Shown one piece after another: positions 8,224 through 34,000 of a stretch of DNA of 43,254 nucleotides. The first letter of the stretch is position 1; every line of letters begins with the position of its first letter. The stretch is from an uncultured Clostridia bacterium (GTDB lineage Bacteria; Bacillota; Clostridia; Christensenellales; Pumilibacteraceae), in NCBI GenBank assembly GCA_934247335.1, contig CAKQJJ010000001.1, positions 1 through 43,254 of the forward strand, read 5' to 3'. The position numbers and the translations under genes were made by a program. The notes below the pieces were generated by a model. The model did not search any database, was not told where the DNA came from, and worked only from the letters and a program-made list of their open reading frames with translations.

Positions 8224-8266
8224 GCAAACGAAAAGCGCACCCTCCTTTTTACGGGAGAATGCGCTT
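8224..8266 (-). terminator. intrinsic terminator closing the large surface-protein operon
   Basis: RNA GCGCAUUCUCC-cguaaaa-GGAGGGUGCGC (11 bp, two G-U pairs) followed by UUUUCGUUU. It starts about 20 nt after the stop at 8285. Confidence 0.8.
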
Positions 8267-8284: not shown

Positions 8285-11200
8285 TTACGCGTTTTCTTCG
8301 GAAGTCTCGATTACTTCGGTGATTTCGACGTATTCGCCGTTGTCGCCGGTTTTGGTTTCGAGCTTATACTTTTTGCTGCCGCCCACGGTTACGATTTTTA
8401 CGTTTGCGTTGTCGGGATCGGCTTCGATTTCGGTAACGAGGTACGTGCTGCCGCCCACTGTGAGAAGCAGTGCGTTGCCTTCGGAATCTACGTCAACGTA
8501 ATCTTCGCCGTTTTCTGCGTAGATTGCCTTGCCGTCCTCAACCGAAACGCTTACGCTTTCGTAAGGAGCGATGACGTTGGTGTCGTCTTCGGAAGGTTCG
8601 CCGGGCTGATCGCCGCCGAGATCGGCTTCTACGACGGTGAGTTTGTAGTACTTGTTTGCCGTGATCTTGCCGTTTTCGTCAGTGGTTCTGGAAACGAGGT
8701 ACCATACGTTGTTCTTCTGGAAACGAATGGTGTACTCGATTGCGTTTTCTTCGGTAACTTCGCCGTTATACAGTCTTGCCGCAAACAGATATCCGGTGGG
8801 ATAGCCCGCGTCGGAAGTGATATTGCGTTCGAGTTCGACGGTGTAGCCGTTGGTCGTCGTCAAAGTCTGCGTACGGGTGAGCGCTACCGTCACGTAACCG
8901 GAAGTACTAAGCGCCTGAATGTACTGAATAGAGAAGTACATTTTGTAGGTGTACGTATCGGGATTCTGTTCGTCGTCGGCGTTCTTTACGGTAAAGGTTG
9001 CGATATAGTTCTGTCCGGTTTCGCCCTGACGCTCGAAGTCGGCTTTATCGAATACGATGATATTGCCGTTGACGTCGTACGCGCCCGAAGCCTGACCGAA
9101 TTCGCCGGTCATATAGTGAATGGTTTCCTTACCTTCGAGGTCGTATTCGTATACGAGCTGAAGCGTTCCGAACACATTGGGAAGCTGCTGAGCGTACTGC
9201 TGACCGTAAATCATGCTGTACATATAGTACATGTACCAGTAGTTATACGAACGAACGCCCATGATACGCTTCATGGAAACGATATCGTACGAGTTGACGC
9301 CCGAACCCTGATAGTCGACGCTGATATCCAGACGGAAGTAGGTCAAAGAATTTATTTGCAGGAGAATAAAGGTTTCGGGCTTGTCGCCGTTCATTATTCT
9401 GTAAACGTAGCAATCGAACTGGTCGTCGCCAAGCATAACCTTGCCGCTTACCGCAAACTGATCTGCTCCGGAAGGCGTGAAGGTAAGATGTCCGATGGTG
9501 CGATATTCGGTTTCTTCTTTTCCCTGTACCGGAATTCTGAACTTACCCGCATTTTCTTCGGGACGCTCGAAGTGGAGAGCGGCACCGTCGTCGTGATAGT
9601 AAGTCTTTCCTGCGTATTCTTTGGTTTCGGTGAATTCGCCGAACACTTCTTCGATGTAGCCGTACTTGTTGGTTTCCTGCGGAATAAGACCGTTTTCGTC
9701 GAATTCCTGATGATAAATGTAGCAAACGCCGTCCACTACGTTGTAGTAATAACGGGTGGTTCCGTTGAATACCGCAAAGCCGTATTTGGTGAACACGAGC
9801 GATTCGAGATCCTTGGTGTAGTAGCCGCGGGCTCTGTTTTCTACGGGGGTTATGGTTCCGTTGGTAAGGTTGTATTTATAGATAGAAGCGTCGCTGTCGG
9901 TTGCGTAGTACAGCAGGTCGTCGGTGATGAGCATGTAAGTTCCGGTTTCCTTTTCGCCGGTTTTGCCCACTTTCACCGCGTTGCCGTAGCCGTCGAGCGA
10001 CAGAACCGACCAGTCGTTGGTGTCGATGAAGTTCATCACGACTTCTTCGTTTCTGACGAAGAACGCAGGATACGTAGAAGTTCCGCTGCGGAAATATCCG
10101 AACTGACCTTTAAGCGTAACCGAAGTTCCGTTGGACATGGTATAGGTAAACGAGCAGTAGCCGTCGGCAAGCGTGTATTCGACGTCGGTTGCGATGTCTT
10201 TGGTTTCGTACTTGCCTGTTTCTTCATTAAGCGAAGTTACGCTTAACGTAAGCTTTCCGTAGCCGTCGAAAGCAACGGTCATACCGCCGTTGGTTCGGTT
10301 GTTGAGCACTACGTACGAGCCGTATTCAAAGCCGCGCTTGGTGAAGGTTTTGTCTTCTTTGAGATCGAGATAAATATAGCCGCTTTCCGAGATAAAGGTG
10401 AGCGCGCCGTTATCGCCGAGGTAGTAATAGCCTTCGATTTCGTTGCCGCTTTCGTCGGTGTAGAGCGCGCGATAGCCGAAGCCGTCGAGCGAAATGCTGG
10501 AATCGCCGAAAGTATATACGCCGTTTACCGAATCGTTGAGGCGTGCGAAGTAAACCGAATTGGAAACTACGACGCGGACGAACTCGAACGAGGTGTTACC
10601 CGAACGGAATCTGTAAATGTCGTCGCCGAATACGGTCTTTGCGCCGGTGGTGTCAGCCGTTCCTACGAGCGTAACCTTTTCGGCTGCGGCGCCTTCTCCT
10701 TCAACGGTAGTGTAGGTTGCGGCGCCCTTGCCGTCGAGAGCAAGAGTGGTGTTTCTGGATGCGGTGCCGTCCGAAAGCATTTCGGCTGCGGTGTACGGTG
10801 CAAACGCAAGTTTGGTAAGCGAAAGCGCGTCCGCGTTCAGCTCGAAATACATATAACGAGTGGTGGTCGTCTCGTCAACGGTGACCTTATAAGTAAGGAC
10901 GTAATATCCGTCTTTTGCGGCAGCCAGCGTTCCGTAGTAGCTGTTGTTGCCCTCGGTATATTTAGCAAAACCGCCCCAGACGGTGAGTTTTGCGCCGCTT
11001 TCGCCGTCGTAAATCTTGGTAAGAGTTTCGACTTCGCCGTCTTTAAGTTTATAGGACGACCAGAAGTTTACGCTGTACTGGGTGCTGTCGGAATCGACGA
11101 TAACGTCGGCGTATTCGACCATTGCGATATTTACGGTGGGCTGCATCCACAGCTTCTTTTCGCCGTTTTCGTCGGTAATGTAGTACGAATAAGCGGCAAC

Positions 11201-13465: not shown

Positions 13466-13486
13466 ATATATCTCCTGTAAAGTTGA

Positions 13487-16400: not shown

Positions 16401-16510
16401 AGATCGACGTTTACGTCTTCGGGCGCGGCAAGAGTTCCGCCGCACGCGGTAAACGCCGCCAGCAACGCACACGCTATAAATATAAAGAAAATTTTCCTAA
16501 CGGATTTCAT
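13487..16510 (-). CDS. 1007-aa BspA-type leucine-rich-repeat lipoprotein
   Basis: Signal peptide with FTAC lipobox (Cys23). An Fn3-like module (LTWSAVTNASAYTVEI) is followed by about 700 aa of LRR_5-type repeats (IPxxVxxIGxxAFxxCxxLxxV). The C-terminus has a partial B-repeat and an acidic tail. RBS AAGGAGA. Confidence 0.9.
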   Translation of the reverse strand: MKSVRKIFFIFIACALLAAFTACGGTLAAPEDVNVDLENTLTWSAVTNASAYTVEISTLDGSDLIDLVKEETSVNTYSFDSRRTTVELSNSNRFTLNEGDYIIKIKALGKTKGTSDSDWSEQYSFHKEYETGCKYALINGGTEYEVNRVGKASGAIVIEDYYRGKPVTRIADQAFKGSVKIVDVTVGNNVTYIGKAAFSSCPKLERVVLPEGVTTIGESAFQSCSSLKEMVIPSTVKEIPYNTFAYCASLEKVTLNEGLENIGELAFAYGSSLKEITIPDTVKTIGKSAFTVSKALETVNVGAGVETIKEYAFSRAESLKTVNFAAQSSLKTLETNAFSYCTKLTGVVLPDGTEDLGEACFYGDSEIKEISIPDSVNHVGFGAFDLTGLYEAAGEYVYADKWLVAYKSETRDVVSLGKDQIKEGTYAIADSVFTKCQRLSDVTLPSSVEIVGKQAFIACPLLYKVIMPKVRVIAYGAFASCPILTNVDFGDVLTTIEGAAFYGCSTFDNNKYSPEDTLPDSVRSIGALAFYGTQLWNNATNGVVFCGKWAVGTTTFGKKDMLGNWESISTANLTIDEKGKDKITCVGIADYAFIVQQSMTTITATENVRYIGKGAFYACQALTGIALSDDLRDIPDYAFLGCQSMMKITLPSRLRSIGRSAFYACARLSEVDIPDSTTSIGTNAFNSCANLVDVKFGEGITEIPDFAFFNSGLGRLTIPENVTVIGRKAFGSSRYLKNVIIEGNVTEIGYAAFYKTRITSIKLPDSLERIENSTFYGATALSSVDFGKGVKEIGEYAFYGTGFRNIAIPENVETIESYAFANTNARSITLRSSLKNIAENAFYNASPAVIYAESEEALAGWQQGWNSSVLPVIYGSTISADGYVESFTVSQNNTENVYQVVKVTDDDGEHYEYTTVKITLPGRAGLVCAGFATTPDATEAEYTDGDVFNLPDGTVLYTVWREADDSDNPFGDLIDDIFGNPDNEQNDADSQTAKMLLSGAFNAFLIK
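13886..16018 (-). repeat. tandem BspA/LRR_5-type repeat coding array (protein-level repeats)
   Basis: A recurrent unit of about 23-25 aa, for example VTYIGKAAFSSCPKLERVVLPEG / VTTIGESAFQSCSSLKEMVIPST. Boundaries are approximate (aa about 165-875). Confidence 0.8.
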
Positions 16511-16580
16511 TTACTCTCCTTGAATAGCGGCAAACAAAACTTTTTTATCGTTTTACCACCGCTTTCGTAACATAATCGGT

Positions 16581-19454
16581 CTATTTTCCGTTCTTCTCTC
16601 TGTGTTCGCGAATGATTTCGTGCGGCCACTTGAACTTGAATTTACGAACCGCAATGTCTGCCAGGAACAACACGATTGCAATGATAATGAACAGATATCT
16701 CGGGTCGAATTTTCTTGCGAACGAAATTACTATTTCTTCAAAGATTTCGACGGGATCGTCGTTATCCGCAACCAGCGCGCCTTTACCTTTCGCGGCGATA
16801 TCGGACATAACTTCTCTCATCGCTGTTTCGTCGGCGTCTTTGGAAATATCGTATTCCGCCGAGTACGCGAACGATTTGAACGCCTCGCTTTCCGTCTGTT
16901 CAACCACTGCTCCGCTCGCGTTCACGCGTTTTGCGACTATTTTGTACACGCCCGCGTTTTTAATTGCGAAAGTGCTGCGGGTATAACCGGTTTCGGCGTC
17001 GAGCGCAACGGTAACGAAGCAATCGGCGTCTGCCGAGTACGAGGAAGTCGAATTGAGCGACACCGTTTTGCCGGTATCTACGTTTACCACTTCCGCGGTA
17101 ATGCGCTCGCCCTCGTTAAGCTCGGAATAGTATACGGAAAGTCGGTTGTATACGTTTTCTTCGGTAATTTTGAGAGAAAGCTTGGTTACGCGTATGTTTT
17201 CGGTGGGCATCAGGTTGTTTACGATGTTCTGGATAAGCTTAACGCCGTTTTTATCGGACATGAATTCGCTTGACCAGCTGCTGTTCTGCAAATCGCACAT
17301 GAAGCTTCCCACCTTGCCTTTTCCGTACGACCACTGCGCGTAAACGGGCACGTCGTAGTCGCCTGCAAGGTACAAATCCGCGTTCTGACGCTTTTTAACG
17401 CCGTAGAAGCCGTTAAGCTTAACCGTCATGCGGGATTTTTCCTCTTCTTCGCCGGTTTCGATGCCGTTGAAGACCGGACTCATAAGCTTTTTGACAATCG
17501 GCTTGAACGGATCTTTTCCCAGTTCCTGCAAAGTAGGCGAAGTGAGGTCGTTACGCATGGTAAGCGTAAGTTTTGCCAGATCGGTTACGGCATAGCAACC
17601 GCCGCCGCCCGTACCGTCCGCGTTTTTGCCGGCGGCAACTATTTTCTGCATGTTGGACATACCGGTTGCGTTCTCCGAATCGGTGAGCACCACCGCCGAC
17701 AGCGTGAGGTTGGATTCCTTGTGAGCGGTTGCAACCTGTTCGCACACCGTCTGAACCTGGTCGTCGCTTATAAAACCGTCGGTAACGATGACGATGTGGC
17801 GTTTATCCACTTCGGTGAGCGCCGAAAGCGAGTTTATCGCACGTTTTATTGCGCCGACGAACGACGTTCCGCCTGCCGCCACCTGCACTTTGTTTATCGC
17901 GTTTAAGATTTCGTCCTTTCTGGTGACCGGGATGGGGTCGAGAAGCGAACGATAGTCGTTGTCGAGCGTCATAACGCCGAAGTAGTTGGCAAGACCGGTA
18001 TTGGTGGTTTCGTCGTATACCGCGTTGTAGCAGGAAAGCGCGCCGCTTCGCGCAGCCGTAAGCTTTCCGCCGCCCATAGATCCCGAACGGTCGATAATAA
18101 GCATAACCCCGATAGGAGGCGTGTAGTTATCGACAGCCAGAACGGGCAACATTTTCTGAAGATCGCTCTCTTCGAGGTCTTCGGCAACGTACGCGTGCTG
18201 ATCGCCCTTTTCGTCGTTACCGCCTACGGTGAACATGCCGCCGCCGAATTCGTAAACGTATTCGTCGAGGATGTCAACCAGCACCGATTTGTCCTTTTGC
18301 GTGGGCAAATTGGGGTTCTGAGCGGTGTCGGTGAGATCGGCGTTGGAAATATTGTTGAGAATTACCTGATCGTAAGCGCGAAGTTCTTCCACCGTGGACG
18401 GCAATTTATCGTTGTATACGTCCAATACGGTGAGATCGAACGCGGAAGTAACGTCGGTGTTGATAAGCTTTTTAAGTTCTTCCGACTGACCTTTCACGCT
18501 TTCGAGAACGAGTATTTTGTTGAAAGCTTCGATATAAACGTGAGTTATATATTCGCTGTTTTTTTCTATCGAATCACCGTTATCGAGCGAGATTTTTACC
18601 TTTATTTCATGCAATCCGTCGGTAGTAAACGTATGGCGCATGACGAAAGACTGCTCGCCGCGGGTAATTTCGGTATCTTCGAGCGCACTCTCGACGTCCA
18701 GTTCGCCGTTATCGAAAAGCTGAACGGTTGCGCCGGTTGCGGGTTCGCTTGCGAAGATATTTACCGTGAACGCGCTTTCTTCGTTTACCTTAACGTTATA
18801 GTCGGGGCGTTCGACCGAAGAAATCTGAACGTCGGCTCCGCTGAACTGCGAGGACACGAATACGGTGTCCACTATTGTTCCCTGAACGGAAAGCGAACGA
18901 GCCACGTCCGCAGCGTTTTTGTCGGTTTGTTTGCCGTCGGATATCAGAACAATACGCGACGATTCGGGATGAGTAAAGCAACTTCTCGCAAACACGAGCG
19001 CGGACGCAATATCGGTTGCCGTAACGTCGGGAAGTTCCGCCGTCAGGTACGCGTCGTAAATGCCGTTTATATCGGTAGTAAGCGGAACGACGTATTTCTG
19101 ATTAAGTCCGAAAGTCACCAGTCCCACTTTAAGGTTGCTGTTTTTGCTGTAATCGAGTACCGCTTCAACCGCTCTGTCGCGATTGTCGGCGGAATTTTCC
19201 TGCGAATCGGACATATCGACGAGAACTATTATTTCGTTGGAAGTATTGGGAACTTCGTACGAGAAGGTCACGTCCGCAAGTACCGAAACGGCAAGGACCA
19301 TTACTATGCAGTGCAACACTATCGAACAGATACGGTTTCTGCTGCGTCTGTGCTTTTTGGAAAGTCTGAAATAGGGGATAAAGACCAGCAAAAACGCGGG
19401 AATGAGCAGGAGCAGCAGCCAGGGATGAGCGAAATTAATTGAGCAATTTGACAT
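16581..19454 (-). CDS. Bat-like membrane protein with two VWA domains (N-terminal double-TM hairpin, C-terminal TM anchor)
   Basis: I place the start at MSNCSINFAHPWLLLLLIPAF (ATG 19452-19454), preceded by GAGGAGG. MIDAS motifs are DMSDS (19203-19217) and DRSGS (18078-18092). The C-terminal helix is YLFIIIAIVLFLADIAV, followed by a basic tail. The 26 codons upstream in the ORF track overlap the previous gene and have no RBS. Confidence 0.85.
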   Translation of the reverse strand: MSNCSINFAHPWLLLLLIPAFLLVFIPYFRLSKKHRRSRNRICSIVLHCIVMVLAVSVLADVTFSYEVPNTSNEIIVLVDMSDSQENSADNRDRAVEAVLDYSKNSNLKVGLVTFGLNQKYVVPLTTDINGIYDAYLTAELPDVTATDIASALVFARSCFTHPESSRIVLISDGKQTDKNAADVARSLSVQGTIVDTVFVSSQFSGADVQISSVERPDYNVKVNEESAFTVNIFASEPATGATVQLFDNGELDVESALEDTEITRGEQSFVMRHTFTTDGLHEIKVKISLDNGDSIEKNSEYITHVYIEAFNKILVLESVKGQSEELKKLINTDVTSAFDLTVLDVYNDKLPSTVEELRAYDQVILNNISNADLTDTAQNPNLPTQKDKSVLVDILDEYVYEFGGGMFTVGGNDEKGDQHAYVAEDLEESDLQKMLPVLAVDNYTPPIGVMLIIDRSGSMGGGKLTAARSGALSCYNAVYDETTNTGLANYFGVMTLDNDYRSLLDPIPVTRKDEILNAINKVQVAAGGTSFVGAIKRAINSLSALTEVDKRHIVIVTDGFISDDQVQTVCEQVATAHKESNLTLSAVVLTDSENATGMSNMQKIVAAGKNADGTGGGGCYAVTDLAKLTLTMRNDLTSPTLQELGKDPFKPIVKKLMSPVFNGIETGEEEEKSRMTVKLNGFYGVKKRQNADLYLAGDYDVPVYAQWSYGKGKVGSFMCDLQNSSWSSEFMSDKNGVKLIQNIVNNLMPTENIRVTKLSLKITEENVYNRLSVYYSELNEGERITAEVVNVDTGKTVSLNSTSSYSADADCFVTVALDAETGYTRSTFAIKNAGVYKIVAKRVNASGAVVEQTESEAFKSFAYSAEYDISKDADETAMREVMSDIAAKGKGALVADNDDPVEIFEEIVISFARKFDPRYLFIIIAIVLFLADIAVRKFKFKWPHEIIREHREKNGK

Positions 19455-19467
19455 AAACCGCACCTCC

Positions 19468-22367: not shown

Positions 22368-22398
22368 TATTTGAGCTCCGTAAAAGATTTATTAAAGG

Positions 22399-23397: not shown

Positions 23398-23453
23398 ATT
23401 TATAGTCTACCTTGTAAAAATTTTTCTGTAACGTTTAAGTCCGGTTTCCGTCG

Positions 23454-24485
23454 TCAGTTGGAAATTCCGTCGAAATAGTCGCCTATAATATCGCCGTCGC
23501 CGGGAGTAAGGTTTCCGTTATTGTTAACTTCGTCCTGGGCATTGTTTTTAGCGTCGCCCAAATCGTCCTTGTAGTTGTGTTCGCCGTCTTTATACTGATT
23601 GTTTTCGTCGTACGAACCGTTTCCGTCGGTGGAAGGCTTGTCGCTGGGCTGAGGAGTGTTGTTGGGTTTATCCGATTTATCGCTGGGAAGGGGCAAATCG
23701 TCGGGATAGGGATCGTTGTCCTCGTCGGCATCCGGATCGGCGTCCTTTGCCTCGACGAAGTTTGCGGTAACCTTGATTTTGCCGGAAACCTCGTAATCGA
23801 CGCGGTAAGCATCGGTTACTCCGTCCGACCAGCCTACGAATATATATCCTTTGTCCGCAACCGCCATGACGGCAAGAGCGTTTTCTCCCTCGTAAACGGT
23901 CTGATTGGTTTCGCCGACTACGGAGCCGTTTTTACCGGCGACGTATTCCACTTTGAAACTTTTGGCTTCTTCCACGTGTTCGGGATTGACAAGCTCGACG
24001 CCGCTTTTGATGACGCCCGCGTTGTACAGAGCGTACACCGTGGTGGTGCCTGCCGCGCAAACGCCGGCAATCGCAACGCCCGCAATGAGCGCAACCGAAA
24101 CGGCGATTTTGATGAGATCGGCGCTTACTTTATTCAACGATTCCATGGCGTCCTGACGCTGACGGGTGGCGATATACGAATCGTCGCCTTCGAGTTCGGT
24201 CATGGTGATAAGACGTTCTTCCAGTCCGAGCTCGTCTACGCGACGGGCAATCGAACGGGTAGTGGGTCGATATTTAACCAGGTAAACGGTAACGGCGGTA
24301 GCCGCAAGCACGACTACGAACAGCACGATGCTGAGCCATATGCCCTTAAAGCCGACAAACCAACAAACCGCCGCGGTTACGAACAGAACCGCGAGAGCAG
24401 CAAGCAGTCCTATGAGCGTAGCCTTTAAAATGCCTTCCGCAACCATGCGTTTGTGGTACTTCTGAAACAGTTGTTTTGCGTTCAT
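23454..24485 (-). CDS. 3-TM membrane protein with an extracytoplasmic Listeria-Bacteroides repeat and an acidic/Pro-rich disordered tail
   Basis: 343 aa. Hydrophobic helices at about aa 22-44, 49-70 and 124-147. B-repeat hallmark KGYIFVGWSDG. The tail (aa 245-343) is rich in D, P, N and K. RBS AGGAGG. Confidence 0.8.
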   Translation of the reverse strand: MNAKQLFQKYHKRMVAEGILKATLIGLLAALAVLFVTAAVCWFVGFKGIWLSIVLFVVVLAATAVTVYLVKYRPTTRSIARRVDELGLEERLITMTELEGDDSYIATRQRQDAMESLNKVSADLIKIAVSVALIAGVAIAGVCAAGTTTVYALYNAGVIKSGVELVNPEHVEEAKSFKVEYVAGKNGSVVGETNQTVYEGENALAVMAVADKGYIFVGWSDGVTDAYRVDYEVSGKIKVTANFVEAKDADPDADEDNDPYPDDLPLPSDKSDKPNNTPQPSDKPSTDGNGSYDENNQYKDGEHNYKDDLGDAKNNAQDEVNNNGNLTPGDGDIIGDYFDGISN

Positions 24486-24545
24486 TTTTGTTACCTCCTG
24501 TCTTCATCCGCCACAGGTATAGTATTGGCGGATTATAATTTTAAT

Positions 24546-24574
24546 ATTATAGCACAAATGCGGAATTTCGTAAA
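24546..24574 (-). promoter_or_regulatory. extended -10 promoter of the MoxR/VWA/lipoprotein operon
   Basis: The reverse strand reads TTTACG aaattccgcatttgtgc TATAAT, with TGc preceding the -10. -35 at 24569-24574, -10 at 24546-24551. Confidence 0.65.
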
Positions 24575-24660
24575 CTGTTTTTTGTAAACAATTCACGAAA
24601 TCCCGACATTTTCACCTAAGTTTCGCCTTTCGGCGGTGCTATTTATTCGTTTTTATTATC

Positions 24661-27600
24661 TTACTCTTTTTCGGCAGGGAATTCGTCGATAAGGACGATG
24701 CGAGCGTTGTTGCCTACCGTTATAGAGCTGTCCCACTGCTTTGCGGCAAGCGTTCTGCCGTCGCCGACGAGATAGATGGTCTGATCTTCCGTCCAGCCGT
24801 TGAACGCCGAATAGTTGACGCTTGCATCCATCGGGAAGTAGATTTCTTTCAGCGAAGTGCAGTAATTGAACGTTCCGGAATAAATGAACGAAAGATTTTT
24901 GCTGATCTTCAAAGTAGTAAGATTGGTGCAGTTTTCAAACATTCTGGTCTGAATTTTGAGAACGTTGGAAATATCGACGTAAGTAAGCTTATCGCAATCT
25001 CCGAAGATCATCGCGCCGCCGTTGTCGAAATCGCCGTCGAACACGACTTTTTCTACCGGACAAGCGCTGAATGCGTATCCGCCGACGTAATTAACGCCTA
25101 CGGGCATATGCACTTCTTTAATTCCGCCGTACTGGAAGACGTAACTTTCCAGACGTTTAAATCCTTCGGGGAAGACGAAACTTTCAAGCGAGGGCGTGTT
25201 GTAGAACATACCGGACGCCAGCCAGTTATATTCGCCGTTTAAGGTAACCGAGGAAAGATTTTCGCAATCGGCAAACATATACTTGCATCCCAGATCGGAA
25301 TTGGTGGTATACGAACCGCTCGAGCTTATCTTCGCCTTTATCGCGAAATTGATGACTACGCTTTCGAGAGCGCTTGCGCGGAACGCGTCGTCGCCTACGC
25401 CGGTTATTCCCGCGGGAAGAGTTACGGTCGTGAGAGCACTTCCCTGGAATGCGCCTTTACCTATAGAGGTAAGCGATTCGGAGAGAGTTATTGCGGTAAA
25501 TCCGGTATTTTGGAACGCGTACTGTCCGATAGAAGTAAGCGTACTCGGCAGAACTATTTCGGTAAGTCCCGTGCATCCGTAGAACGCGTAATCGCCGATT
25601 TTGGTCACTCCTTCGGGGATAACTATCTTTTTGAGTCCCTTGAATCCGTAGAACATCTTTGCGGGGATTTCGGTCATTCCTGCGGGAAGAGTAATCTCGG
25701 TTTCGGTGGTAATTCCGTTGAACGCGCCGGAAGAAGTTATGCTTCCGAAGTCGTAATCGAACGAATTTTTAGCGGGATGATAGTACAGTACGGTCTTTGC
25801 CGCATTGTAGATGGCGTTGTCTTCGGTTACGACGAAGTTTGCGCTGTTGTTTACGAAAGGCTTCATCTCGCAACCCATAAACGCGCCGCTTCCGATGTAT
25901 TTGAGTTTTGCGCCCAAAGTAAATTCGGTGATGCCGGTTCCTGCGAATACTTCGGAGGAAAGTACCTGGAAGTTATTGAGCGGAACGTCGATCGAGGTAA
26001 GTTTTTCGCAGCCGTAGAAGCATCTGTAACCAAAGCCGGTAACTGCGGTTCCCGCAAATTTAACGGTGGTAAGATTGGTGCAGCCTGCAAAAGTATATCC
26101 GTACGATTCGGATTCTTTGTCGTAGTTTGCGGGGTTGGAAGTATATACGCTGCCGATAGCCGCAACCTTTACGGGAACGGTGATTTCGGTAAGCGAAGTG
26201 CAGCCTTCAAACAGTCTTGCGGGCAAAGCGGTAAGCGCCGTGTTGTTTCCGAAGTCTACTTTGCTCAAAGACGTGCATCCGCGGAAAGCACCCCATCCGA
26301 GAGAGGTTCCGCTAACCTTGGGAAGATTTACTTCCTTAAGGCTTACGCAGTTGTCAAACGCACAGTTGCCTATAACGGTGAGGTTGTTGAGGTTTATGGA
26401 TTTGAGCGAAGTGCAGTTCTGGAATACGAACGCGCCCATTTTGGTAACCTTTGCGCCGAGGGTAACAGTTTCGAGATCTTTACAATTCGCAAACGTGTAA
26501 GTCTTGGTGCTGTATCTGGTTCCGAGATCGGCTACTTTATCGGGAATTGCGATAGATTTAAGACCCGAGCCCTGGAAGCAATAGGTACCGATTTTGGTAA
26601 GATTTGCCGGTAACGTTATCGCAGTCAGGCTTTCGCAGAACTGGAAGCTGTTGGAACCCAACTGAGTAACAGAAGCGGGAATATTAACCGATTTAAGCTT
26701 TTTGCAGTTCGCGAACGCGTTGTTGGAAATTGCAGTCAAACTTTCGGGAAGAATTACGCTTTCAAGGCTTTCGCAACCGTCAAACATATAGGTAGGCATA
26801 GCGGTAAGACCGGTTGCCGCTCCGAGATCGACGGAAACGAGCTTTTTGCAGTTCTGGAACATGTAGTTGCCAAGCGTTTTCTTATCCTTGGTGGAAAGTT
26901 TAGCAAGGTTGTTGAAAGTTACGTTCGTAAGATTTGCGCAATCTTTGAAAATGTACGTATCGCTCATCTTCTCCACGCTTGCGGGGATTACGATGCTTTC
27001 GATTCCGCTGTTTATAAACGCGCTGCCCTGAATGGTTTTAAGCGAATCGGGAAGAACGACCGTTTTAAGCGAAATACAGTTACGGAAAGTGTAGCAAGAA
27101 TTGGAATAAGAAGAGGTTCCGCTGCCTATCTGCGTAAGGTTTGCCGGAAGTGTGAGATTTTTAAGGCTCTTGCAACCGTCGAACATTTTGCTAGGCAATA
27201 CGGTTACGCCCTGAGCGTTGGGACGCAGGTTGGGCAATTTGATGGTTTCGAGCGCGTAGCAGTTGCTGAACGCGGCGTCGCCGAACGTGGGATAGCATCC
27301 TTCTTCAAACACTACTTCTTTCAGGTTGATGCAGGACGCAAACGCGTACGAGCCGATGGACTGAACGGACGCAGGTATTACCAATTTTTCGATATCGGTC
27401 TGACCTTCGAGCGCGTTGGGCGAAATTTCGATAATTCCGGCAGGAATTCTGAACACCTTTTCGGTGACGGGATTGCCCTTTTCGTCCTTGATTACGTTGC
27501 CGTCGGCGTCCTTCTTTTCTTCGGGCGTAGCTTTAAGCGTTCCGAGAATATAACGGATAGCTTCGTTGGTGATGTTTACTATTATCTGTTTGTTTTTAGC

Positions 27601-30600
27601 GTATACGGCAAAGTGTTCCGAACCTGCGTCGATTTCGAGCACTTCGATGGACGCGCATTTACTGAACGCGCCTTCGAGCGAAGAAACCGATTTGGAGATA
27701 CTTACAGTGGTAAGTCCTTTACATCCGGAGAATACTGCCGTTCCGAGCGTAACGCCGTTTGCACTCTTGCTTTCCGGAACGCGGAAGTAACTGAGGTCGG
27801 TTCTTGCGAAAGCTTCGTTGCCAATCGATTCGAGGTTGCAGGTCTTTTCGACGAAAGTAACTTCGCCAAGCTGCGAGCAGCCGCTGAAAGCAGAATTTCC
27901 GATGGTTTTAACCGATTCGGGTATTGCTATTTTCTTAATTCCGGTGCCTTCAAACGCGTTTGCACCTATCGTTTCAAGCTGACTGCCTTCCTCGAAGGTT
28001 ACGCTCGTAAGACTTTTAAGGTTTTTGAAAGCCGAGCTTTTTATTGTCTGAATCGAAGCAGGGATTTCGATAGATTCGAGCGAGTTGCACTGAGAGAACA
28101 TGCTGTCGCCGATTTCGGTGAGCGAGCATTTGCCTTCCGAATTCTTTCTGAAAGTCACGGTCTTCAAAGACGTGCAGGACTCGAAGTTTCTGTAATAAAT
28201 AGTGGTTATAATGCTGGAAGAATACCAGGGATCTTTCGTTCCCACCGTGGTAAGCGTGGACGGGAGCGAAACGCTTTCGAGTTTGCCGGCGTGGCTGAAC
28301 GCATAGCATTCGAGAGTGGTTACGCCTTCCGGTATCGTCAACTCTTTGACGGCGGTGTTGTAGAAAGATCTTGCTCCGATTTTAGTAAGAGTATTGTTTT
28401 CGGCAAAATTAACCGTGGTAAGATTTACGGCGTCGTAGAACGCGCTGTGGCTTATTTCGGTATTGCCTTCGGCAAAAGTGATTTTGGTAAGACCGCTGTT
28501 TGCGAATGCCGCCGCGGAAAGCACTTTGAGTCTCTTGGGAAGAGTGATTTCGGTAAGCGCGGTGCAACCTGCAAATACGCCGTCGTAATAAGTTCTTTCT
28601 TCCGTTCCTCCGCCGCTGCCGGGCTCTTCGATGGTGATTTTGCCGTCTGCGAGAGTCAGGTAGTTGAGCACTTCGTCGGTGGGATTGCCGTCCTCGTCTT
28701 CGCCGTAGATAAATTCGTCTTCGATATCCACTTTCGCAAGACTGGTGCAGCCCTTAAACGCGTTTGCGCCTATCGAGATAACCGTCTTGGGGATGAATAC
28801 TTCTTTAAGCGAAGTACACTGAGCAAACATGTTGTCGCCGATTTCGGTAAGACCCTGCGGCAACGAAATTTTGTCAAGCTTAGCGCAGCCGTTGAATACC
28901 GCTTTGCCCATTTCGAGGGTTTTGCCGGTAATTCCGTTGGGGAAGCTGATTTCGACGACGTTCTGATTTGCGTAGAACGCTTTGTCTGCGATTTTTTCGA
29001 CAGACGAAATTATTTCCACGACGCCGCCCTTGTTAAGCGGGCAGACCATAAGGGTGGTTCCGGTAACCTTTCCTTCTTTGTCGTAATTGTTTTTGTAAAG
29101 AATTCCGTCGTTATCGAAATAGTCTTCGTTGCCCTCTTCGACGGTGATCGAGTAAAGCATGCTGCAACCGTCGAAAATACGTGTTTTGGTGATCGCGACG
29201 TTTCCCAGTCCGTAAACGTATTCGTTGGCGGTTCTTTCTTCTATTTCCTGAACGTTTTTAGGAATGGTTATGCTTTCAAGCGAGTAGCAGTTCTGGAACG
29301 CGCCGTCGCCCAGTTTTATAAGGCGCTGGGGAAGAATTATGTTTTTAAGCATTTTGGCGTTCATGAATGCCGACGCACCCAGTTCGAGCGCGTTGGATTT
29401 GTTTGCCGTAAGCTCCTCTGCCGCTGCAGCGAAAGTAACCGTCGTAAGTTCGTCGCAGCCCTTAAACGCGCTGTCGCCGATAAACGTAACCGTCTTCGGA
29501 ATTACTACCGACGAAATTTTGGAATTCATGAATACGTTTCCGCCGATAGCCTTGATGGTACCTTTGCCTTCGATGGTTTCGGGGATGACGTATTCGCCGG
29601 TAATACCGCCGGGGAAGTACGCTATTTCGATTTCGGCGTTTTCTCCGAGCGTCTTACTGAACAGGACGCCTTCCTGCGAGAAATAACTCTGGTTTTGTTC
29701 GTCAACGTTTATTTCTTTAAGGCTGCTGCCGCCGAACACGTTGCCGAAGTTGTCAACCTTGGGCGTATCTTTACCGATGTTTACGTAGTAGAGATAGCCG
29801 GTCGGGCTGGTTGCGTGGTCGGTGTGGAACGCGTATTCTTCGTAATCCACAACCGTGCGAACGATGTTGAGGTTAAGCGTTCTGAGCGCGGTAGTTCCGC
29901 CGAACGCATTCTTTTTAAGAACTTTAAGGTTTTCAGGCAAAGTAAGTTCGGTAATTTTGTTGAGTCCGTAGAAAGCCTTGTTCATTATCGTAAGGTCGCT
30001 GTCGTTTGCCTTACCCTCAAACGAAAGTTCGGTAATCGAGGTGCAGCTCATAAACGCTTCTTCGTCGATGAAAGTCACGTATGCGGGGATGGTGAGTTTG
30101 GTGATTTTCGCGCTCTTGAACGCCCCTTTCGCAATAGTGAAAATTCCCTGCGGAATGGTGTATTCGGTTGCTCTTCCTTTCGGGAAATAGACGATGGTAT
30201 CAAACTGCTTGGTGGCTTCGTTCAGTTTGCACAGAACGCCGTCAATGCTCTTGTAGTTTGCGTTGTTCTCGATGAAGACGTTCTGCATAGCGCTGCATCC
30301 GTCGAACATAGTAACGTCGATTTCCTTCATATAGGACGGAAGCGTTACTTCTTCGAGTTTATAGCAAGATTTGAATATGTTTGCGCCGACGGTCATTTCC
30401 TGTTCGGTTTCGCTGCTTATAAAGGTAACTCTGAGCAGGCTGGAGCAGCTTTGGAACGCTCCCTCGCCGATTTTGATTACGCTCGAGGGAATGGTGATTT
30501 CGGTGATGTTGGATTTCTGATAAAGCGATTTAGCGGGCAATTCGACAACGTCGGAAGGAATTACGTACGCGCCTTCACGATATCTGGGATAGTAAGCGAG

Positions 30601-33390
30601 TTCGTATCCGCCGGTTTCCTGCTTTTTGTAGAGAATACCGTCAACCGATTTATATCTCGGATTTCTTGCACCTTCGACGTGATAAACGTTGACGTACAGA
30701 AGGTTACGGCAACCGTTGAACGCCGCGCCGGATTCGTAACCGCCGTCCATACCTACTTCGACGTTGGTAATGGTGTCGGGCAGGTTGAGCTCGACCATGT
30801 TGGAGCAGCCGTTAAACGAAACTACGCTGGTGACTTTTTTGCCGTTGTAGTTACCGGGAACGGTAACCGTACTCATAAATCCGATACCGGGACCGCCGGA
30901 TACGGCGTATTCGGTGCCGTTGTTGGTAAGGTCGAATTCAAACACTTCAACCCAATAAGCGTACAGAGTGCAATCGCCCGATCTTCTGTATTCGGCAATG
31001 GACGAACCGAGGTAGTCGGTGTACTGAATACCTTTGCCGTTGGGCTCGGTGTACCAGCCCGCAAAAGCAGTCAGAGGATCGTTGGTTTCCGCAGTGCCCA
31101 GCTCGAACTTGCTGCCGTAAGTAACCGTTTTGGTTGCTTCTTTGATGGTACCGCCGCCGCGAACGTCGAGCGTTACTTTATAGGTGTTGGCATTCCACTG
31201 AGCTACGAGCGAAATATCCTGATTTGCAAAGAACTTGGTGGAAGCGTTAACCTTTTCGCCGTCGAGCAGCCAGCTTGCGAAAGTGTAGCCCACGCGGGTA
31301 ACTTCGGGCAAGCCGTAGAAGTCGCCTTCGGTGAGATATTCGTACATATCCTCGTCCTTTCCGGTAACGTAAGTGATTTTGTACGCCTGAACGGTTATTT
31401 CTATCCACTGAGAAGCCTTGTCGCCGCGATAGTAGCATACGGCAACCTTGGTGTTTTTATCTTTAAGTTTAAGAGCGTACTCGGTTACGTTCTGATTGTC
31501 GAGCACGACTTCGCCGTTTACCTTAACCGAGTATCCGGTTGCGCCGAATACGCCGTTCCAGGTAACTTTTCCGTTCTGATAAGCAAGCGTGCTTTCAAGT
31601 GCGCCTTCGCCGAAGTTGAGCGAGGCGGTGTAATCGGAATCGCTGTACTTTTCGCCTTCGATCGTGCCGCCTACGGCTTTAACCGCAGCGGTTTCGGCGT
31701 TGCCGGTTTTTGCGTAATCTTCTTCAGTGAGCGTAAACGAAAGCTCGGCTGCGCCCAGGGTGAATTCGGCGTTGCCTATCTTTATAATATAGCCGGTAGC
31801 GTTGTCAACGGCGTTCCAGGTGAAGGTTCCGTTGACGAATGCAAAGCCCGAGGGAGTTGCAAGCTTGGTCTTTTTAAGCGACAGCGTTGCGGCTTCGCTC
31901 GAAACGTAGCACTTTGCTTCGGCGGTTACCGAAACGGTAAATTCGCCGGAATACGCGCGCAGATCTATCTTGGTTTCGGTGGTTTCTTTCTGCTCGGTGC
32001 CGGCAGCGGTGATAATGTTTACTATATATTTTTCGGCATTTTCTACCGCCGTCCACGTTGCTTCGTCCATATTTTCGTCGGCTGCAAGTCCGCTGACTTT
32101 ATCCAGCTTGCGCACGAGAACGTACTTTTCGGAGTACGAGGAAATATAGCCGTCGGCATACGCTTCGACCACGAAAGACAGTCCGTTTTCGGTCATGCCG
32201 CAGGACGAAAAGTCGTATTCGGTGGCGGTTTTAAGATCGATTGCCGCGGTGTGATTGTGTTCGGGATTTTCGCAGGTTACGGTAAGCTTGTATCCCTCCG
32301 CTTTGGGAACGGGAGCAAACTTTAAGGTGTTGCCTTCGACGGTAAAGTCGGAAACCTTCACGAGACCCATATGACGATAGTATGCGGTGCCGGTTTTGGA
32401 GCCGTATCTGACGGTGATTATGTAGTCGCCGGCAACGTTGGTCATATCGTAGTCGACGTAGTTCTGCATGCAGTTGAGAAGAGCGGGATCCTCGACTTCG
32501 GTTCCGTCGGGCAGAGTGATCTCAACGGCGTAACGAACGTTATTGCCCTGCGCGTTCCAGGAAATGCGCTTGTCGCTTACCGAAACGGCAATTCCGTCGG
32601 TATCCCACACGGCGTACAGCACGGTGTTTTCTTCGATATCCTGGTTTTCGTATTTATAGGAAAGCTTTTCCTTGTCGCCGTACTGGCTTATCCACCAGCC
32701 GAGGAACTTTTTGCCTTCCGCGGTGAGTTCGGGCAAATTGTAAAGCTTGCCGTTCACGGTTTGCATCGTGCCGACCTGCTCGTCGCCGTTCATAAAGGTT
32801 GCGGTGAACACGAACGACGAAGTATTTTGAATGAATTTAGCGTAAACGGTGACGTTTCCACGCTCGTTTACGTCGAAATTATAAGGTTTCGTGCAGGCGC
32901 TGTCCGAGAACCAGCCGACGAAAGTATATCCTTCTTTAACGGGAGCAGTTGCGGGAGACTGAACTTTCTGACCGTTTCTGACAGTGGAGTTTGCCACTCC
33001 GGTGCCGCCGTCCAACTCGAACGTAACGGTAAAAGTCTTGTTCTCCAGAAAAGCGTATTCCTTACCTTTATAAGTCAAGGTAAGTTCGTCCCCGGTTAAC
33101 GTAGCGGTAATAGCCTCTCCGTCCGTGGGATTGATGACCAGCGTATTGCCTTTCAGGTTAAACGTACCGGTTTTGGTTTCGCCGGCAATTACGAGACTGA
33201 AAGAGGTGCCGTCAAGCGACACGGTGTATTCCGTACCGTCAACGATGCAATAATAGCTTGCGGTTTTACTCTCTCCTGTATCGGGACCGTTCGTATCCCC
33301 GTCGCACGCCGCAAACGGCAATGCCATCAGGCATACTGCGACCAATACCAGAATGAGTTTTGTCAATAAAAAGCTCTTGGTTTTTTTCAT
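24661..33390 (-). CDS. 2909-aa giant lipoprotein: B-repeats, Fn3-like modules and a very long BspA-type LRR array
   Basis: Signal peptide with PFAAC lipobox (Cys29). B-repeats at aa about 119-186, 193-262, 669-732 and 736-813 (GYTFVGWFSD, KKFLGWW, GYTFASWLLDG, FAGWYTEPNG). Five modules at aa about 265-668 carry the W-x-A/G-V...Y-x-V motif. LRR_5 repeats run from aa about 815 to about 2865. RBS GGAGG. Confidence 0.9.
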   Translation of the reverse strand: MKKTKSFLLTKLILVLVAVCLMALPFAACDGDTNGPDTGESKTASYYCIVDGTEYTVSLDGTSFSLVIAGETKTGTFNLKGNTLVINPTDGEAITATLTGDELTLTYKGKEYAFLENKTFTVTFELDGGTGVANSTVRNGQKVQSPATAPVKEGYTFVGWFSDSACTKPYNFDVNERGNVTVYAKFIQNTSSFVFTATFMNGDEQVGTMQTVNGKLYNLPELTAEGKKFLGWWISQYGDKEKLSYKYENQDIEENTVLYAVWDTDGIAVSVSDKRISWNAQGNNVRYAVEITLPDGTEVEDPALLNCMQNYVDYDMTNVAGDYIITVRYGSKTGTAYYRHMGLVKVSDFTVEGNTLKFAPVPKAEGYKLTVTCENPEHNHTAAIDLKTATEYDFSSCGMTENGLSFVVEAYADGYISSYSEKYVLVRKLDKVSGLAADENMDEATWTAVENAEKYIVNIITAAGTEQKETTETKIDLRAYSGEFTVSVTAEAKCYVSSEAATLSLKKTKLATPSGFAFVNGTFTWNAVDNATGYIIKIGNAEFTLGAAELSFTLTEEDYAKTGNAETAAVKAVGGTIEGEKYSDSDYTASLNFGEGALESTLAYQNGKVTWNGVFGATGYSVKVNGEVVLDNQNVTEYALKLKDKNTKVAVCYYRGDKASQWIEITVQAYKITYVTGKDEDMYEYLTEGDFYGLPEVTRVGYTFASWLLDGEKVNASTKFFANQDISLVAQWNANTYKVTLDVRGGGTIKEATKTVTYGSKFELGTAETNDPLTAFAGWYTEPNGKGIQYTDYLGSSIAEYRRSGDCTLYAYWVEVFEFDLTNNGTEYAVSGGPGIGFMSTVTVPGNYNGKKVTSVVSFNGCSNMVELNLPDTITNVEVGMDGGYESGAAFNGCRNLLYVNVYHVEGARNPRYKSVDGILYKKQETGGYELAYYPRYREGAYVIPSDVVELPAKSLYQKSNITEITIPSSVIKIGEGAFQSCSSLLRVTFISSETEQEMTVGANIFKSCYKLEEVTLPSYMKEIDVTMFDGCSAMQNVFIENNANYKSIDGVLCKLNEATKQFDTIVYFPKGRATEYTIPQGIFTIAKGAFKSAKITKLTIPAYVTFIDEEAFMSCTSITELSFEGKANDSDLTIMNKAFYGLNKITELTLPENLKVLKKNAFGGTTALRTLNLNIVRTVVDYEEYAFHTDHATSPTGYLYYVNIGKDTPKVDNFGNVFGGSSLKEINVDEQNQSYFSQEGVLFSKTLGENAEIEIAYFPGGITGEYVIPETIEGKGTIKAIGGNVFMNSKISSVVIPKTVTFIGDSAFKGCDELTTVTFAAAAEELTANKSNALELGASAFMNAKMLKNIILPQRLIKLGDGAFQNCYSLESITIPKNVQEIEERTANEYVYGLGNVAITKTRIFDGCSMLYSITVEEGNEDYFDNDGILYKNNYDKEGKVTGTTLMVCPLNKGGVVEIISSVEKIADKAFYANQNVVEISFPNGITGKTLEMGKAVFNGCAKLDKISLPQGLTEIGDNMFAQCTSLKEVFIPKTVISIGANAFKGCTSLAKVDIEDEFIYGEDEDGNPTDEVLNYLTLADGKITIEEPGSGGGTEERTYYDGVFAGCTALTEITLPKRLKVLSAAAFANSGLTKITFAEGNTEISHSAFYDAVNLTTVNFAENNTLTKIGARSFYNTAVKELTIPEGVTTLECYAFSHAGKLESVSLPSTLTTVGTKDPWYSSSIITTIYYRNFESCTSLKTVTFRKNSEGKCSLTEIGDSMFSQCNSLESIEIPASIQTIKSSAFKNLKSLTSVTFEEGSQLETIGANAFEGTGIKKIAIPESVKTIGNSAFSGCSQLGEVTFVEKTCNLESIGNEAFARTDLSYFRVPESKSANGVTLGTAVFSGCKGLTTVSISKSVSSLEGAFSKCASIEVLEIDAGSEHFAVYAKNKQIIVNITNEAIRYILGTLKATPEEKKDADGNVIKDEKGNPVTEKVFRIPAGIIEISPNALEGQTDIEKLVIPASVQSIGSYAFASCINLKEVVFEEGCYPTFGDAAFSNCYALETIKLPNLRPNAQGVTVLPSKMFDGCKSLKNLTLPANLTQIGSGTSSYSNSCYTFRNCISLKTVVLPDSLKTIQGSAFINSGIESIVIPASVEKMSDTYIFKDCANLTNVTFNNLAKLSTKDKKTLGNYMFQNCKKLVSVDLGAATGLTAMPTYMFDGCESLESVILPESLTAISNNAFANCKKLKSVNIPASVTQLGSNSFQFCESLTAITLPANLTKIGTYCFQGSGLKSIAIPDKVADLGTRYSTKTYTFANCKDLETVTLGAKVTKMGAFVFQNCTSLKSINLNNLTVIGNCAFDNCVSLKEVNLPKVSGTSLGWGAFRGCTSLSKVDFGNNTALTALPARLFEGCTSLTEITVPVKVAAIGSVYTSNPANYDKESESYGYTFAGCTNLTTVKFAGTAVTGFGYRCFYGCEKLTSIDVPLNNFQVLSSEVFAGTGITEFTLGAKLKYIGSGAFMGCEMKPFVNNSANFVVTEDNAIYNAAKTVLYYHPAKNSFDYDFGSITSSGAFNGITTETEITLPAGMTEIPAKMFYGFKGLKKIVIPEGVTKIGDYAFYGCTGLTEIVLPSTLTSIGQYAFQNTGFTAITLSESLTSIGKGAFQGSALTTVTLPAGITGVGDDAFRASALESVVINFAIKAKISSSGSYTTNSDLGCKYMFADCENLSSVTLNGEYNWLASGMFYNTPSLESFVFPEGFKRLESYVFQYGGIKEVHMPVGVNYVGGYAFSACPVEKVVFDGDFDNGGAMIFGDCDKLTYVDISNVLKIQTRMFENCTNLTTLKISKNLSFIYSGTFNYCTSLKEIYFPMDASVNYSAFNGWTEDQTIYLVGDGRTLAAKQWDSSITVGNNARIVLIDEFPAEKE
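24796..30948 (-). repeat. tandem BspA/LRR_5-type repeat coding array (about 2050 aa; by length and period on the order of 80-90 units, not counted exactly)
   Basis: Repeated units such as ITIPSSVIKIGEGAFQSCSSLLRVTF, LTIPAYVTFIDEEAFMSCTSITELSF and VVIPKTVTFIGDSAFKGCDELTTVTF. The units are diverged at the DNA level. Boundaries are approximate. Confidence 0.8.
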
Positions 33391-33552: not shown

Positions 33553-33581
33553 ATTTTACTATTTTATCAGAGTTTTGTCAA
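33553..33581 (-). promoter_or_regulatory. sigma-A type promoter of the giant lipoprotein gene
   Basis: The reverse strand reads TTGACA aaactctgataaaatag TAAAAT: -35 at 33576-33581, a 17-nt spacer, -10 at 33553-33558. This implies a leader of about 156 nt. Confidence 0.6.
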
Positions 33582-33959: not shown

Positions 33960-34000
33960 TTTGTTTTCAAAGTGCGTATATTGCGCCGCCGCGTGAATTA

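Follow-up and report, generated by a model that had tools for sequence, protein, structure and literature searches.

MoxR ATPases encoded together with DUF58 and VWA proteins (Bat-like modules) occur in many bacterial phyla, where they affect stress tolerance and virulence. In a 43,254-nucleotide stretch of DNA from an uncultured Clostridia bacterium (contig CAKQJJ010000001.1, positions 1 to 43,254; hereafter the window), such a module lies among the genes of three giant predicted surface lipoproteins, and the question is whether the ATPase, the VWA proteins and the lipoproteins belong to one system. By comparing the cluster with its relatives, we found that the membrane-protein and lipoprotein genes keep a fixed order across species, a linkage that is not due to chance, and a functional link of the MoxR/DUF58/VWA genes with the leucine-rich repeat (LRR) and B-repeat lipoproteins is well supported by this sequence comparison.

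Gene order and transcription units

The open reading frame (ORF) list and Pfam searches reproduced the gene order and domains that a first-pass annotation of the window had given for eight minus-strand genes at 8285-33390 (TM, transmembrane):

24661-33390, minus strand: giant LRR_5/B-repeat lipoprotein, 2909 aa
23454-24485, minus strand: 3-TM B-repeat membrane protein, 343 aa
22399-23397, minus strand: MoxR AAA+ ATPase, 332 aa
21468-22367, minus strand: DUF58 protein, 299 aa
19468-21471, minus strand: BatA-like VWA membrane protein, 667 aa
16581-19454, minus strand: double-VWA membrane protein, 957 aa
13487-16510, minus strand: LRR lipoprotein, 1007 aa
8285-13465, minus strand: B-repeat/propeller-like lipoprotein, 1726 aa

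The gaps between them, from the giant gene onward, were likewise recovered from the ORF list as claimed (175, 56, 31, -4, 13, 70 and 21 bp), the negative value being the overlap (ATGA) of the DUF58 stop with the start of the BatA-like gene.

Relatives were found with an alignment of double-VWA homologues, and 80 loci were collected from one-genome-per-species GTDB contigs. These are the best 80 of 199 confirmed relatives, with 37-72% identity to the window double-VWA protein, and their ORFs were labelled with profiles made from the window's own proteins and domains. The fetched loci have 10-kb flanks, so the upstream view ends within the giant gene; because the flanks stop before its far side, only the downstream edge of the cluster was judged. 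All the sampled genomes come from one lineage.

An LRR_5 gene was found directly downstream of the double-VWA gene, on the same strand, in 71 of the 71 loci where this position could be observed, and the next gene was a B-repeat gene of more than 1500 aa (the ~1700-aa lipoprotein) in 63 of 64. As a background, 75 flanking ORFs outside the cluster had 150 aa or more, and only 3 of these contained LRR_5 or B-repeat domains. This comparison could have told against the linkage proposed in the first-pass annotation and instead agreed with it, as did the reverse one, in which three divergent homologues of the 1726-aa protein (28%, 29% and 31% identity, the first two being among the most divergent recovered) each lay within a cluster of this kind. 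The complete order (3-TM, MoxR, DUF58, BatA, double-VWA, LRR, lipoprotein) was kept in 38 loci, and in 36 of these the giant LRR gene preceded it. The series running from the giant LRR gene through the 3-TM, MoxR and DUF58 genes to the BatA-VWA gene was present in 36 loci and, without just MoxR and DUF58, in three more, a giant LRR_5 gene standing at the equivalent position in 39 relatives. No core gene lay on the opposite strand in the sampled loci. Outside the cluster, the gene that follows varies between species, none of the window's 10 flanking genes recurs in any sampled locus, and downstream synteny stops at the cluster edge.

The claim that the module is hard-wired to the giant proteins held for the membrane-protein and lipoprotein genes, which are fixed, and less strictly for MoxR and DUF58. 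These two are absent from the cluster in four relatives, where the 3-TM gene stands directly before the BatA-like gene:

L016:6880-9987, cluster without MoxR and DUF58
L028:4492-7612, cluster without MoxR and DUF58
L067:6731-9986, cluster without MoxR and DUF58
L087:740-4316, cluster without MoxR and DUF58

Since the four keep the membrane-protein and lipoprotein genes, the ATPase is not strictly hard-wired. The 3-TM protein was found wherever the position upstream of MoxR is visible, except in L089. This rearranged cluster (L089:1-6065) has no 3-TM or giant gene before MoxR and carries a paralogous LRR gene (931 aa) and lipoprotein gene (1685 aa), the latter with a product 27% identical to the window 1726-aa protein. 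As the paralogous pair stands immediately upstream of MoxR, the LRR and lipoprotein genes stay with the module even in this arrangement. The species is an abundant one, with a protein cluster of 604 member sequences.

The following transcription signals were located around the genes:

33932-33962: terminator of the upstream phosphoenolpyruvate carboxykinase (PEPCK) gene
33553-33581, minus strand: promoter-like site TTGACA-17-TAAAAT before the giant LRR gene, matching at 11 of 12 positions
24561-24605, minus strand: perfect inverted repeat with 20-bp arms (-44.1 kcal/mol, z = -8.7)
24546-24574, minus strand: promoter-like site TTTACG-17-TATAAT with extended TG, for a seven-gene operon, matching at 10 of 12 positions
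8224-8266, minus strand: intrinsic terminator ending the operon (-24.5 kcal/mol, z = -3.7, then a U-run)

From these signals, the cluster looks like two units, the giant gene alone and a seven-gene operon that begins with the 3-TM gene and ends with that of the 1726-aa lipoprotein. The giant gene is set apart because it has its own promoter-like site, a 20-bp hairpin behind it in the window and ordinary terminators at the same place in relatives. Thus, where the first-pass annotation had described one operon fused to three giant genes, the other seven genes, whose junctions are tight in every species, look like one unit, and the giant gene is probably transcribed apart from them. Ahead of the giant gene, five promoter-like sites were found where 1.3 were expected. 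A promoter had also been placed in the 175-bp gap, and a promoter-like site is present there (24574->24546). The hairpin behind the giant gene had been described as only a weak one; it proved instead to be the perfect inverted repeat listed above, which lies between the giant-gene stop and the next promoter, overlaps the -35 hexamer of the latter and is kept in the closest species (L002). It is probably an atypical terminator, with the tail CAUUUGUGCU, and could alternatively be an operator.

In the relatives that we read, the giant-gene stop is followed by an ordinary hairpin with a T-run and then by a TATAAT-like -10 before the 3-TM gene, often with an extended TG, a TTTAC-type -35 being visible in several. 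A crude terminator scan detected a hairpin and T-run at this junction in 28 of 41 relatives, a terminator-like site after the orthologue of the 1726-aa gene in 40 of 59, and such sites at the inner junctions in 0-12% of loci per junction, where the median gaps across relatives are 44, 24, -4, 12, 3.5 and 57 bp. In the window, the strong terminator predicted at the operon end was borne out by its folding energy and U-run, and the reported lack of an internal terminator was confirmed, as none of the intergenic gaps between 24485 and 8285 contains a hairpin followed by a U-run. Terminator-like matches within genes were at shuffle level (33 found, 27.8 ± 5 expected).

Predicted products of the cluster

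The MoxR protein matches AAA_3 (PF07726, 1.1e-62, 210 bits) and AAA_lid_2 in Pfam. Its Walker A (GVPGVGKT) and Walker B (LADEINR) motifs are both invariant in 48 of 48 sequences, and its median identity to orthologues is 84%. It also passes the threshold of PF20030 (bpMoxR; 40.7 bits, cutoff 27), which is not its best family given the 210 bits for AAA_3. The DUF58 gene, 31 bp downstream of moxR, encodes a protein (PF01882, 4.6e-30; median identity to orthologues 71.5%) with a VWA-like domain; in the metal ion-dependent adhesion site (MIDAS) motif of this domain, DCSAS, the D and the two S are invariant in 58 of 58 sequences. Lacking a TM segment, the protein is predicted to be cytoplasmic.

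The three membrane proteins are less conserved, with median identities to the window of 41.5% (double-VWA), 39% (BatA-like) and 37% (3-TM). The 3-TM protein has an outward Flg_new_2 B-repeat (residues 178-245, 35.7 bits), a conserved cytoplasmic segment (residues 71-125, window 24111-24275), an acidic linker and a conserved C-terminal motif. In the cytoplasmic segment, the motif RVDxLGLEERxxTM...QR shows no or almost no variation among 31 sequences, and the invariant residues of the protein are mostly cytoplasmic (D84, L86, G87, L88, R91, T94, M95, Q109 and R110). A homologue search with the whole protein returned 6290 cluster representatives at E <= 0.001, the best 150 being mostly long proteins with many B-repeat copies, and a search with the N-terminal part alone returned 13 fragments; neither was informative on the context of the 3-TM protein outside the clade. 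The BatA-like protein consists of an N-terminal double-TM BatA domain (PF07584, 37.2 bits, cutoff 25.9; TIGR02226, 18.3, below the cutoff of 23.05), an outward VWA_2 domain with the MIDAS motif DASAS (D, S and S invariant in 66 of 66 sequences) and a C-terminal TM segment.

The double-VWA protein starts at the ATG at 19454, its orthologues sharing the same opening MxNFxIxFSxPWLLLL. Pfam detects two VWA stretches and GATase1_like, and the order along the protein is two TM segments, VWA1, a beta module, a GATase1-like alpha/beta module, VWA2, a second beta module, a TM segment and a tail. In the AlphaFold model (pLDDT 85), the TM helices span residues 11-30, 39-59 and 919-939 and are followed by a short cytoplasmic C-terminal helix. 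VWA2 has a full MIDAS (D455, S457, S459, T530 and D559) with an invariant DxSxS, and VWA1 has DxSx(T/S), with few exceptions at the last position. The cytoplasmic tail RKFKFKWPHE (residues 937-957, window 16581-16643) is invariant as RKFKFKW-HE in 75 sequences, as are the loop residues R36, R39, N40 and R41. Foldseek matched the model to the tandem-VWA protein PTMP1, ITIH1, integrin beta3 and ANTXR, to the VWA domain of Rpn10 (target TM-score about 0.8) and to BatB of B. thetaiotaomicron (PDB 3ibs).

Basic residues are abundant in the inter-TM loops (7 of 14 and 10 of 33 residues), and the tail is basic as well; by the positive-inside rule, this places the VWA domains outside the membrane. The AlphaFold model agrees with this orientation, which the first-pass annotation had also proposed, and so does the topology of the BatA-like protein BB0173, whose VWA domain is periplasmic by experiment (PMC5700661). 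Identity to the window in the two VWA membrane proteins is 0.50-0.76 for the predicted cytoplasmic loops and tails and for most TM segments, compared with 0.37-0.43 for the ectodomains, while in the 3-TM protein the cytoplasmic segment alone stands out (0.59). This pattern parallels the conservation of the cytoplasmic MoxR and DUF58 proteins and is what one expects if the conserved segments are contact sites for them.

The three remaining products are predicted lipoproteins with lipoboxes read from the sequence as FAAC (2909 aa), LAAFTAC (1007 aa) and LAAC (1726 aa); counting the window copy, the pattern is present in 63 of 70 and 52 of 60 members of the two smaller families. The 2909-aa protein matches LRR_5 (PF13306, E = 0) in 17 stretches, with about 20 BspA-type units at residues 950-2888, and contains four B-repeats at residues 120-260 and 676-811 (Flg_new, 111 bits). 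In three relatives, the giant LRR gene encodes 2917, 2869 and 3164 aa, and the median identity to the window is 27%. The 1007-aa protein has an FN3-like N-terminal domain and matches LRR_5 (3.1e-157) in 6 stretches, with about 9 units. Its orthologues (921-1189 aa, median identity 36%) align in a single high-scoring segment pair (HSP) over 95% of the protein. Membership of the Gli349 family (101-125 bits, cutoff 1750) and of the HupY/LrrG adhesins (215-286 bits, cutoff 1250) was considered for these proteins and rejected. The B-repeat had been reported in four of the eight products; three exceed the Pfam thresholds, whereas the copy at the C-terminal end of the 1007-aa protein falls below threshold as a degenerate repeat in the window (independent E = 0.023) and is clear in 62 of 69 orthologues.

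The 1726-aa protein had been grouped with the others as B-repeat/LRR lipoproteins, but it is not an LRR protein, and Pfam found no LRR in it. Flg_new, at its N-terminal end, is its sole Pfam family (78.7 bits, 2-3 B-repeats). Residues ~330-1726 (window 8285-12475) gave no Pfam, NCBIfam or PDB sequence match, either as a single sequence or as a 29-sequence profile. A search with this unannotated part (1396 aa) returned 48 proteins, of which 47 are full-length orthologues (1598-1854 aa) and one is a 944-aa partial. Internal repeats of ~155 aa occupy residues ~360-1250. The model of residues 841-1726 is all-beta (pLDDT 87.7), and its best structural matches are multi-propeller proteins, namely DDB1 (E = 7e-10) and SF3b130 and CPSF160 (~1e-9), with a viral RCC1-like protein at 2.7e-06; global TM-scores for such matches are just ~0.1, and we describe the C-terminal region only tentatively as propeller-like. 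The C-terminal ~1400 aa constitute a candidate new domain family and define a large, hitherto unannotated all-beta family. In the sampled loci, orthologues of this protein have 1636-1874 aa and a median identity of 32.5%, single HSPs covering 95-97%. The two smaller lipoproteins keep their length and align along their whole extent (95-97% in a single HSP), and they behave as conserved components rather than variable adhesins.

Proposed mechanism and rival explanations

The data strongly support a single functional system, for which a mechanism can be suggested by analogy. We lean, if only by a little, towards one envelope-spanning system in which a VWA base organises the lipoproteins and MoxR-DUF58 remodels the base. 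Outside, the 3-TM, BatA-like and double-VWA proteins would form a membrane base with three intact MIDAS in its ectodomains. The base would bind the co-encoded lipoproteins (the ~1000-aa LRR and ~1700-aa B-repeat/propeller-like proteins and the ~2900-aa LRR protein from the adjacent transcription unit) and organise them into a large surface assembly that binds ligands; the grounds for this arrangement are topology, synteny and the conservation of the MIDAS. Inside, a MoxR hexamer, with DUF58 as a cytoplasmic VWA-like adaptor, would engage the three membrane proteins at their conserved cytoplasmic loops and tails and spend ATP on assembling the base or switching its state, as the analogy with NorQ-NorD, RavA-ViaA and integrin inside-out activation suggests. 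The physical contacts between the parts, the side from which control is exerted and the end purpose (adhesion or capture of substrates) are what we infer from these lines. A bolder version seems to us rather unlikely: a hitherto unrecognised trans-envelope machine of Christensenellales-like gut Clostridia in which MoxR-DUF58 would use ATP to switch MIDAS anchors inside-out, in the manner of integrins, and so assemble or activate a megadalton adhesive or substrate-capturing lipoprotein complex. If true, such an inside-out machine would for the first time assign definite clients to the Bat/MoxR-DUF58-VWA module and explain in general terms how it works.

Several points weigh against the envelope-spanning system. 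The giant LRR gene is probably a transcript of its own, and the B-repeat shared between products is weak evidence because the domain is very common in such surface proteins. The four clusters without MoxR and DUF58 keep all the conserved cytoplasmic motifs; either the ATPase is encoded elsewhere in these genomes or the motifs have another role. Decay of the motifs in these clusters was looked for and not found, a comparison that does not discriminate. To our knowledge, no Bat-type module has been demonstrated to let a cytoplasmic ATPase act on ectodomains by way of short loops and tails. All the genomes are metagenome-assembled genomes (MAGs) of uncultured organisms, the mechanism is one read from sequence, and the association was scored in the best 80 of the 199 confirmed relatives only. 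Finally, the phenotypes tied to canonical Bat operons concern stress and aerotolerance rather than surface display (PMC11834572, PMC3557215).

Comparison with known systems shows which parts of the cluster are shared. Bat-type operons (B. fragilis, Leptospira, Borrelia BB0170-BB0176, Riemerella) have in common with the window an AAA_3 MoxR (MRP subfamily) followed by DUF58, the N-terminal double-TM BatA domain with VWA, a second VWA membrane protein and VWA domains placed on the outer side of the cytoplasmic membrane (PMC5700661); the double-VWA model of the window matches BatB (PDB 3ibs) in fold. However, Pfam scans of the eight products (E <= 0.01) detected neither BatD nor a tetratricopeptide repeat (TPR) partner like BatB, BatC or BatE; their places in the cluster are taken by LRR, B-repeat and propeller-like proteins. 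Also unlike those operons, the cluster is headed by a 3-TM B-repeat protein, its second VWA protein has two VWA domains and a GATase1-like module, its extracytoplasmic accessories are LRR_5/B-repeat/propeller-like lipoproteins of 1000-2900 aa, and its host belongs to a Clostridia lineage. The core of Bat-type MoxR(AAA_3)-DUF58-BatA/VWA is thus already known, whereas its combination with the 3-TM protein, the double-VWA protein and the lipoproteins appears to be new; a full-text search of open-access papers and bioRxiv found no link of Bat-like modules with LRR/B-repeat giant proteins.

MoxR ATPases generally remodel dedicated complexes via VWA partners (PMC9976466, PMC13036017, PMC3893208). 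In NorQ-NorD, RavA-ViaA and CbbQ-CbbO, an AAA+ hexamer and a MIDAS VWA adaptor together remodel a dedicated client complex (same references), and MoxR-DUF58 of the window fits, by analogy, such a chaperone pair. The clients of those pairs are cytoplasmic or membrane enzymes receiving metal cofactors, whereas the candidate clients here are membrane VWA proteins and surface lipoproteins, with no enzyme client in the cluster. The LRR_5 and Flg_new domains of the window are clear members of the families found in BspA-type and InlB B-repeat proteins; such proteins are usually stand-alone, variable adhesins, whereas the proteins studied here are size-conserved orthologues in an operon with an ATPase/VWA module. 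Integrins and PilY1-type adhesins, for their part, are like the window system in pairing outward MIDAS VWA domains and a beta-propeller-like module, with short cytoplasmic tails that could govern the state of the ectodomain. The likeness is one of analogy only: homology is claimed for the VWA fold alone, the propeller-like part of the window system is a separate lipoprotein and the proposed source of energy is an AAA+ ATPase.

Among the rival explanations, outside-in sensing, in which the lipoproteins would sense a ligand and signal through the VWA proteins to a MoxR-DUF58 threshold switch, is in our estimate unlikely. LRR and propeller folds are typical of ligand sensors, the 1726-aa protein is tentatively propeller-like, the MoxR protein scores above the bpMoxR threshold, and the cytoplasmic segments are the most conserved parts of the membrane proteins. 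There is also a precedent in signalling, since MoxR and vWA genes are tied in the genome to large surface repeat or filamentous propeller proteins both in ternary conflict systems of the MoxR-vWA kind (Kaur et al. 2020, PMC7159879) and in the threat-sensing Esr pathway of Actinomycetota (bioRxiv 10.64898/2026.09.08.750141). Those systems, however, derive from a CoxD/CoxE-type MoxR pair and have cytoplasmic vWA proteins fused to effector or adaptor domains, as well as kinases or FHA proteins, with variable sensor or effector parts; the window ATPase is of the AAA_3 type (210 bits) with a DUF58 partner rather than CoxD-like, its BatA-type VWA domains are predicted to face outward, and its putative sensors are conserved orthologues that are not diversifying. 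Pfam scans found no effector, adaptor, kinase, FHA or other output gene in the cluster or its flanks, nor does the cluster contain a transcription factor, and PADLOC, run on seven of the products, returned weak, generic ATPase-domain matches for MoxR and nothing more. A surface motility or "leg" machine, with giant surface proteins moved by an ATPase as for Gli123, Gli349 and Gli521 of Mycoplasma mobile, is scarcely credible. The layout of giant tandem surface proteins beside an ATPase is alike, and both LRR proteins partly match the NCBIfam Gli349 model (101 and 125 bits), but the cutoff of that model is far above these scores and the matches reflect shared LRR_5-like repeats only; moreover, an F1-like motor is absent, and MoxR ATPases are remodelling chaperones, not known motility motors.

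It is decidedly unlikely that the genes are mere neighbours, a Bat-like stress module having come to lie beside adhesin genes through common descent in one clade. The published oxidative and heat stress phenotypes of Bat and MoxR proteins (PMC11834572, PMC3557215) would suit this explanation, as would the single lineage that supplies all the sampled genomes and the occasional absence of MoxR and DUF58 from the cluster. Yet order, strand and tight junctions are kept at ~30-45% protein identity, while the downstream neighbour changes by species and the window's flanking genes are not found in the loci. In addition, terminator-like sites are rare at the inner junctions, the operon itself includes the LRR and lipoprotein genes, which come after the VWA genes, and the rearranged L089 cluster still has a paralogous LRR and lipoprotein pair beside its MoxR/VWA genes. 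A platform for substrate capture and proteolysis, mainly a nutrient-harvesting surface complex on which the LRR proteins would hold a protein or glycoprotein for a cell-envelope subtilase, with Opp-type uptake of the peptides and the VWA base as no more than an anchor, is improbable as well. It draws on the S8 subtilase gene that comes next after the ~1700-aa lipoprotein in 18 of 56 relatives, with a gap of 11-59 bp in about 12 of them, and on two loci (L086 and L088) in which a subtilase-LRR_5 protein of 2539-2548 aa precedes an SBP_bac_5 gene. At that position, however, a subtilase is missing from the window and from some two thirds of the relatives, and the ATPase is left unexplained. Such a platform is compatible with the envelope-spanning system and does not exclude it.

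Because a fixed gene cluster joins them to the ATPase/VWA module, the cis-encoded lipoproteins are the first obvious candidate partners for the enigmatic Bat-like module. As orthologous partners from the same operon, they make the question of clients an experimental one: to which VWA/MIDAS site each lipoprotein binds, and what is altered by the ATPase. The hosts, Christensenellales-like bacteria from the gut of humans and other animals, belong to a group that attracts interest in connection with host health, and the ~25-kb cluster probably encodes a major surface structure of these organisms.

Flanking genes and further observations

As a defence or conflict system, the cluster was also run through PADLOC with seven products (the giant LRR protein was left out); this candidate was rejected as the main explanation, the matches being weak ones for MoxR and none being returned for the other six.

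Domain scans showed that the genes on either side of the cluster are housekeeping genes. On one side lie genes for DegV, a phosphoribosyltransferase, a permease, a RecF-like ATPase and an ABC exporter, and on the other those for PEPCK, fumarase, GH116 and GH39. The window has no subtilase, ~520-540-aa protein or SBP_bac_5 gene after the cluster. Rfam and tRNA scans of the window returned no family and no tRNA, and GC content is even along it, with no anomaly suggesting recent transfer.

The subtilase genes of the relatives are located as follows:

L005-L007, L010, L011, L019, L021, L034, L038, L045: S8 subtilase gene next after the ~1700-aa lipoprotein gene
L053, L061-L063, L069, L074, L077, L080: S8 subtilase gene at the same position
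L086:15284-22930: Peptidase_S8 + PA + fn3_5 + LRR_5 protein (2539-2548 aa)
L088:15831-23450: protein of the same domain composition and size range

In L086 and L088, the subtilase is followed by an uncharacterised ~520-540-aa protein and then by the SBP_bac_5 (OppA-like) gene.

The window comes from a gut metagenome. Homologues of the cluster proteins carry the names Clostridia, Christensenellaceae, Candidatus Borkfalkiaceae, Neoclostridium and Scatosoma, and their existing annotation is merely "VWA domain-containing protein" or "InlB B-repeat-containing protein". Two MAGs each contain two divergent clusters (L009 and L064 in CANRGG01, L008 and L051 in SFEB01), which reflect either duplication of the whole cluster or bin contamination. 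Finally, six loci (L018, L019, L020, L049, L069 and L070) bear a Clostridia-type cluster under foreign record titles (Prevotella sp., Acidiphilium sp., Anaeroplasma bactoclasticum, Anaeroplasma sp. and Parasutterella excrementihominis) and are probably mislabelled or mis-binned MAGs.

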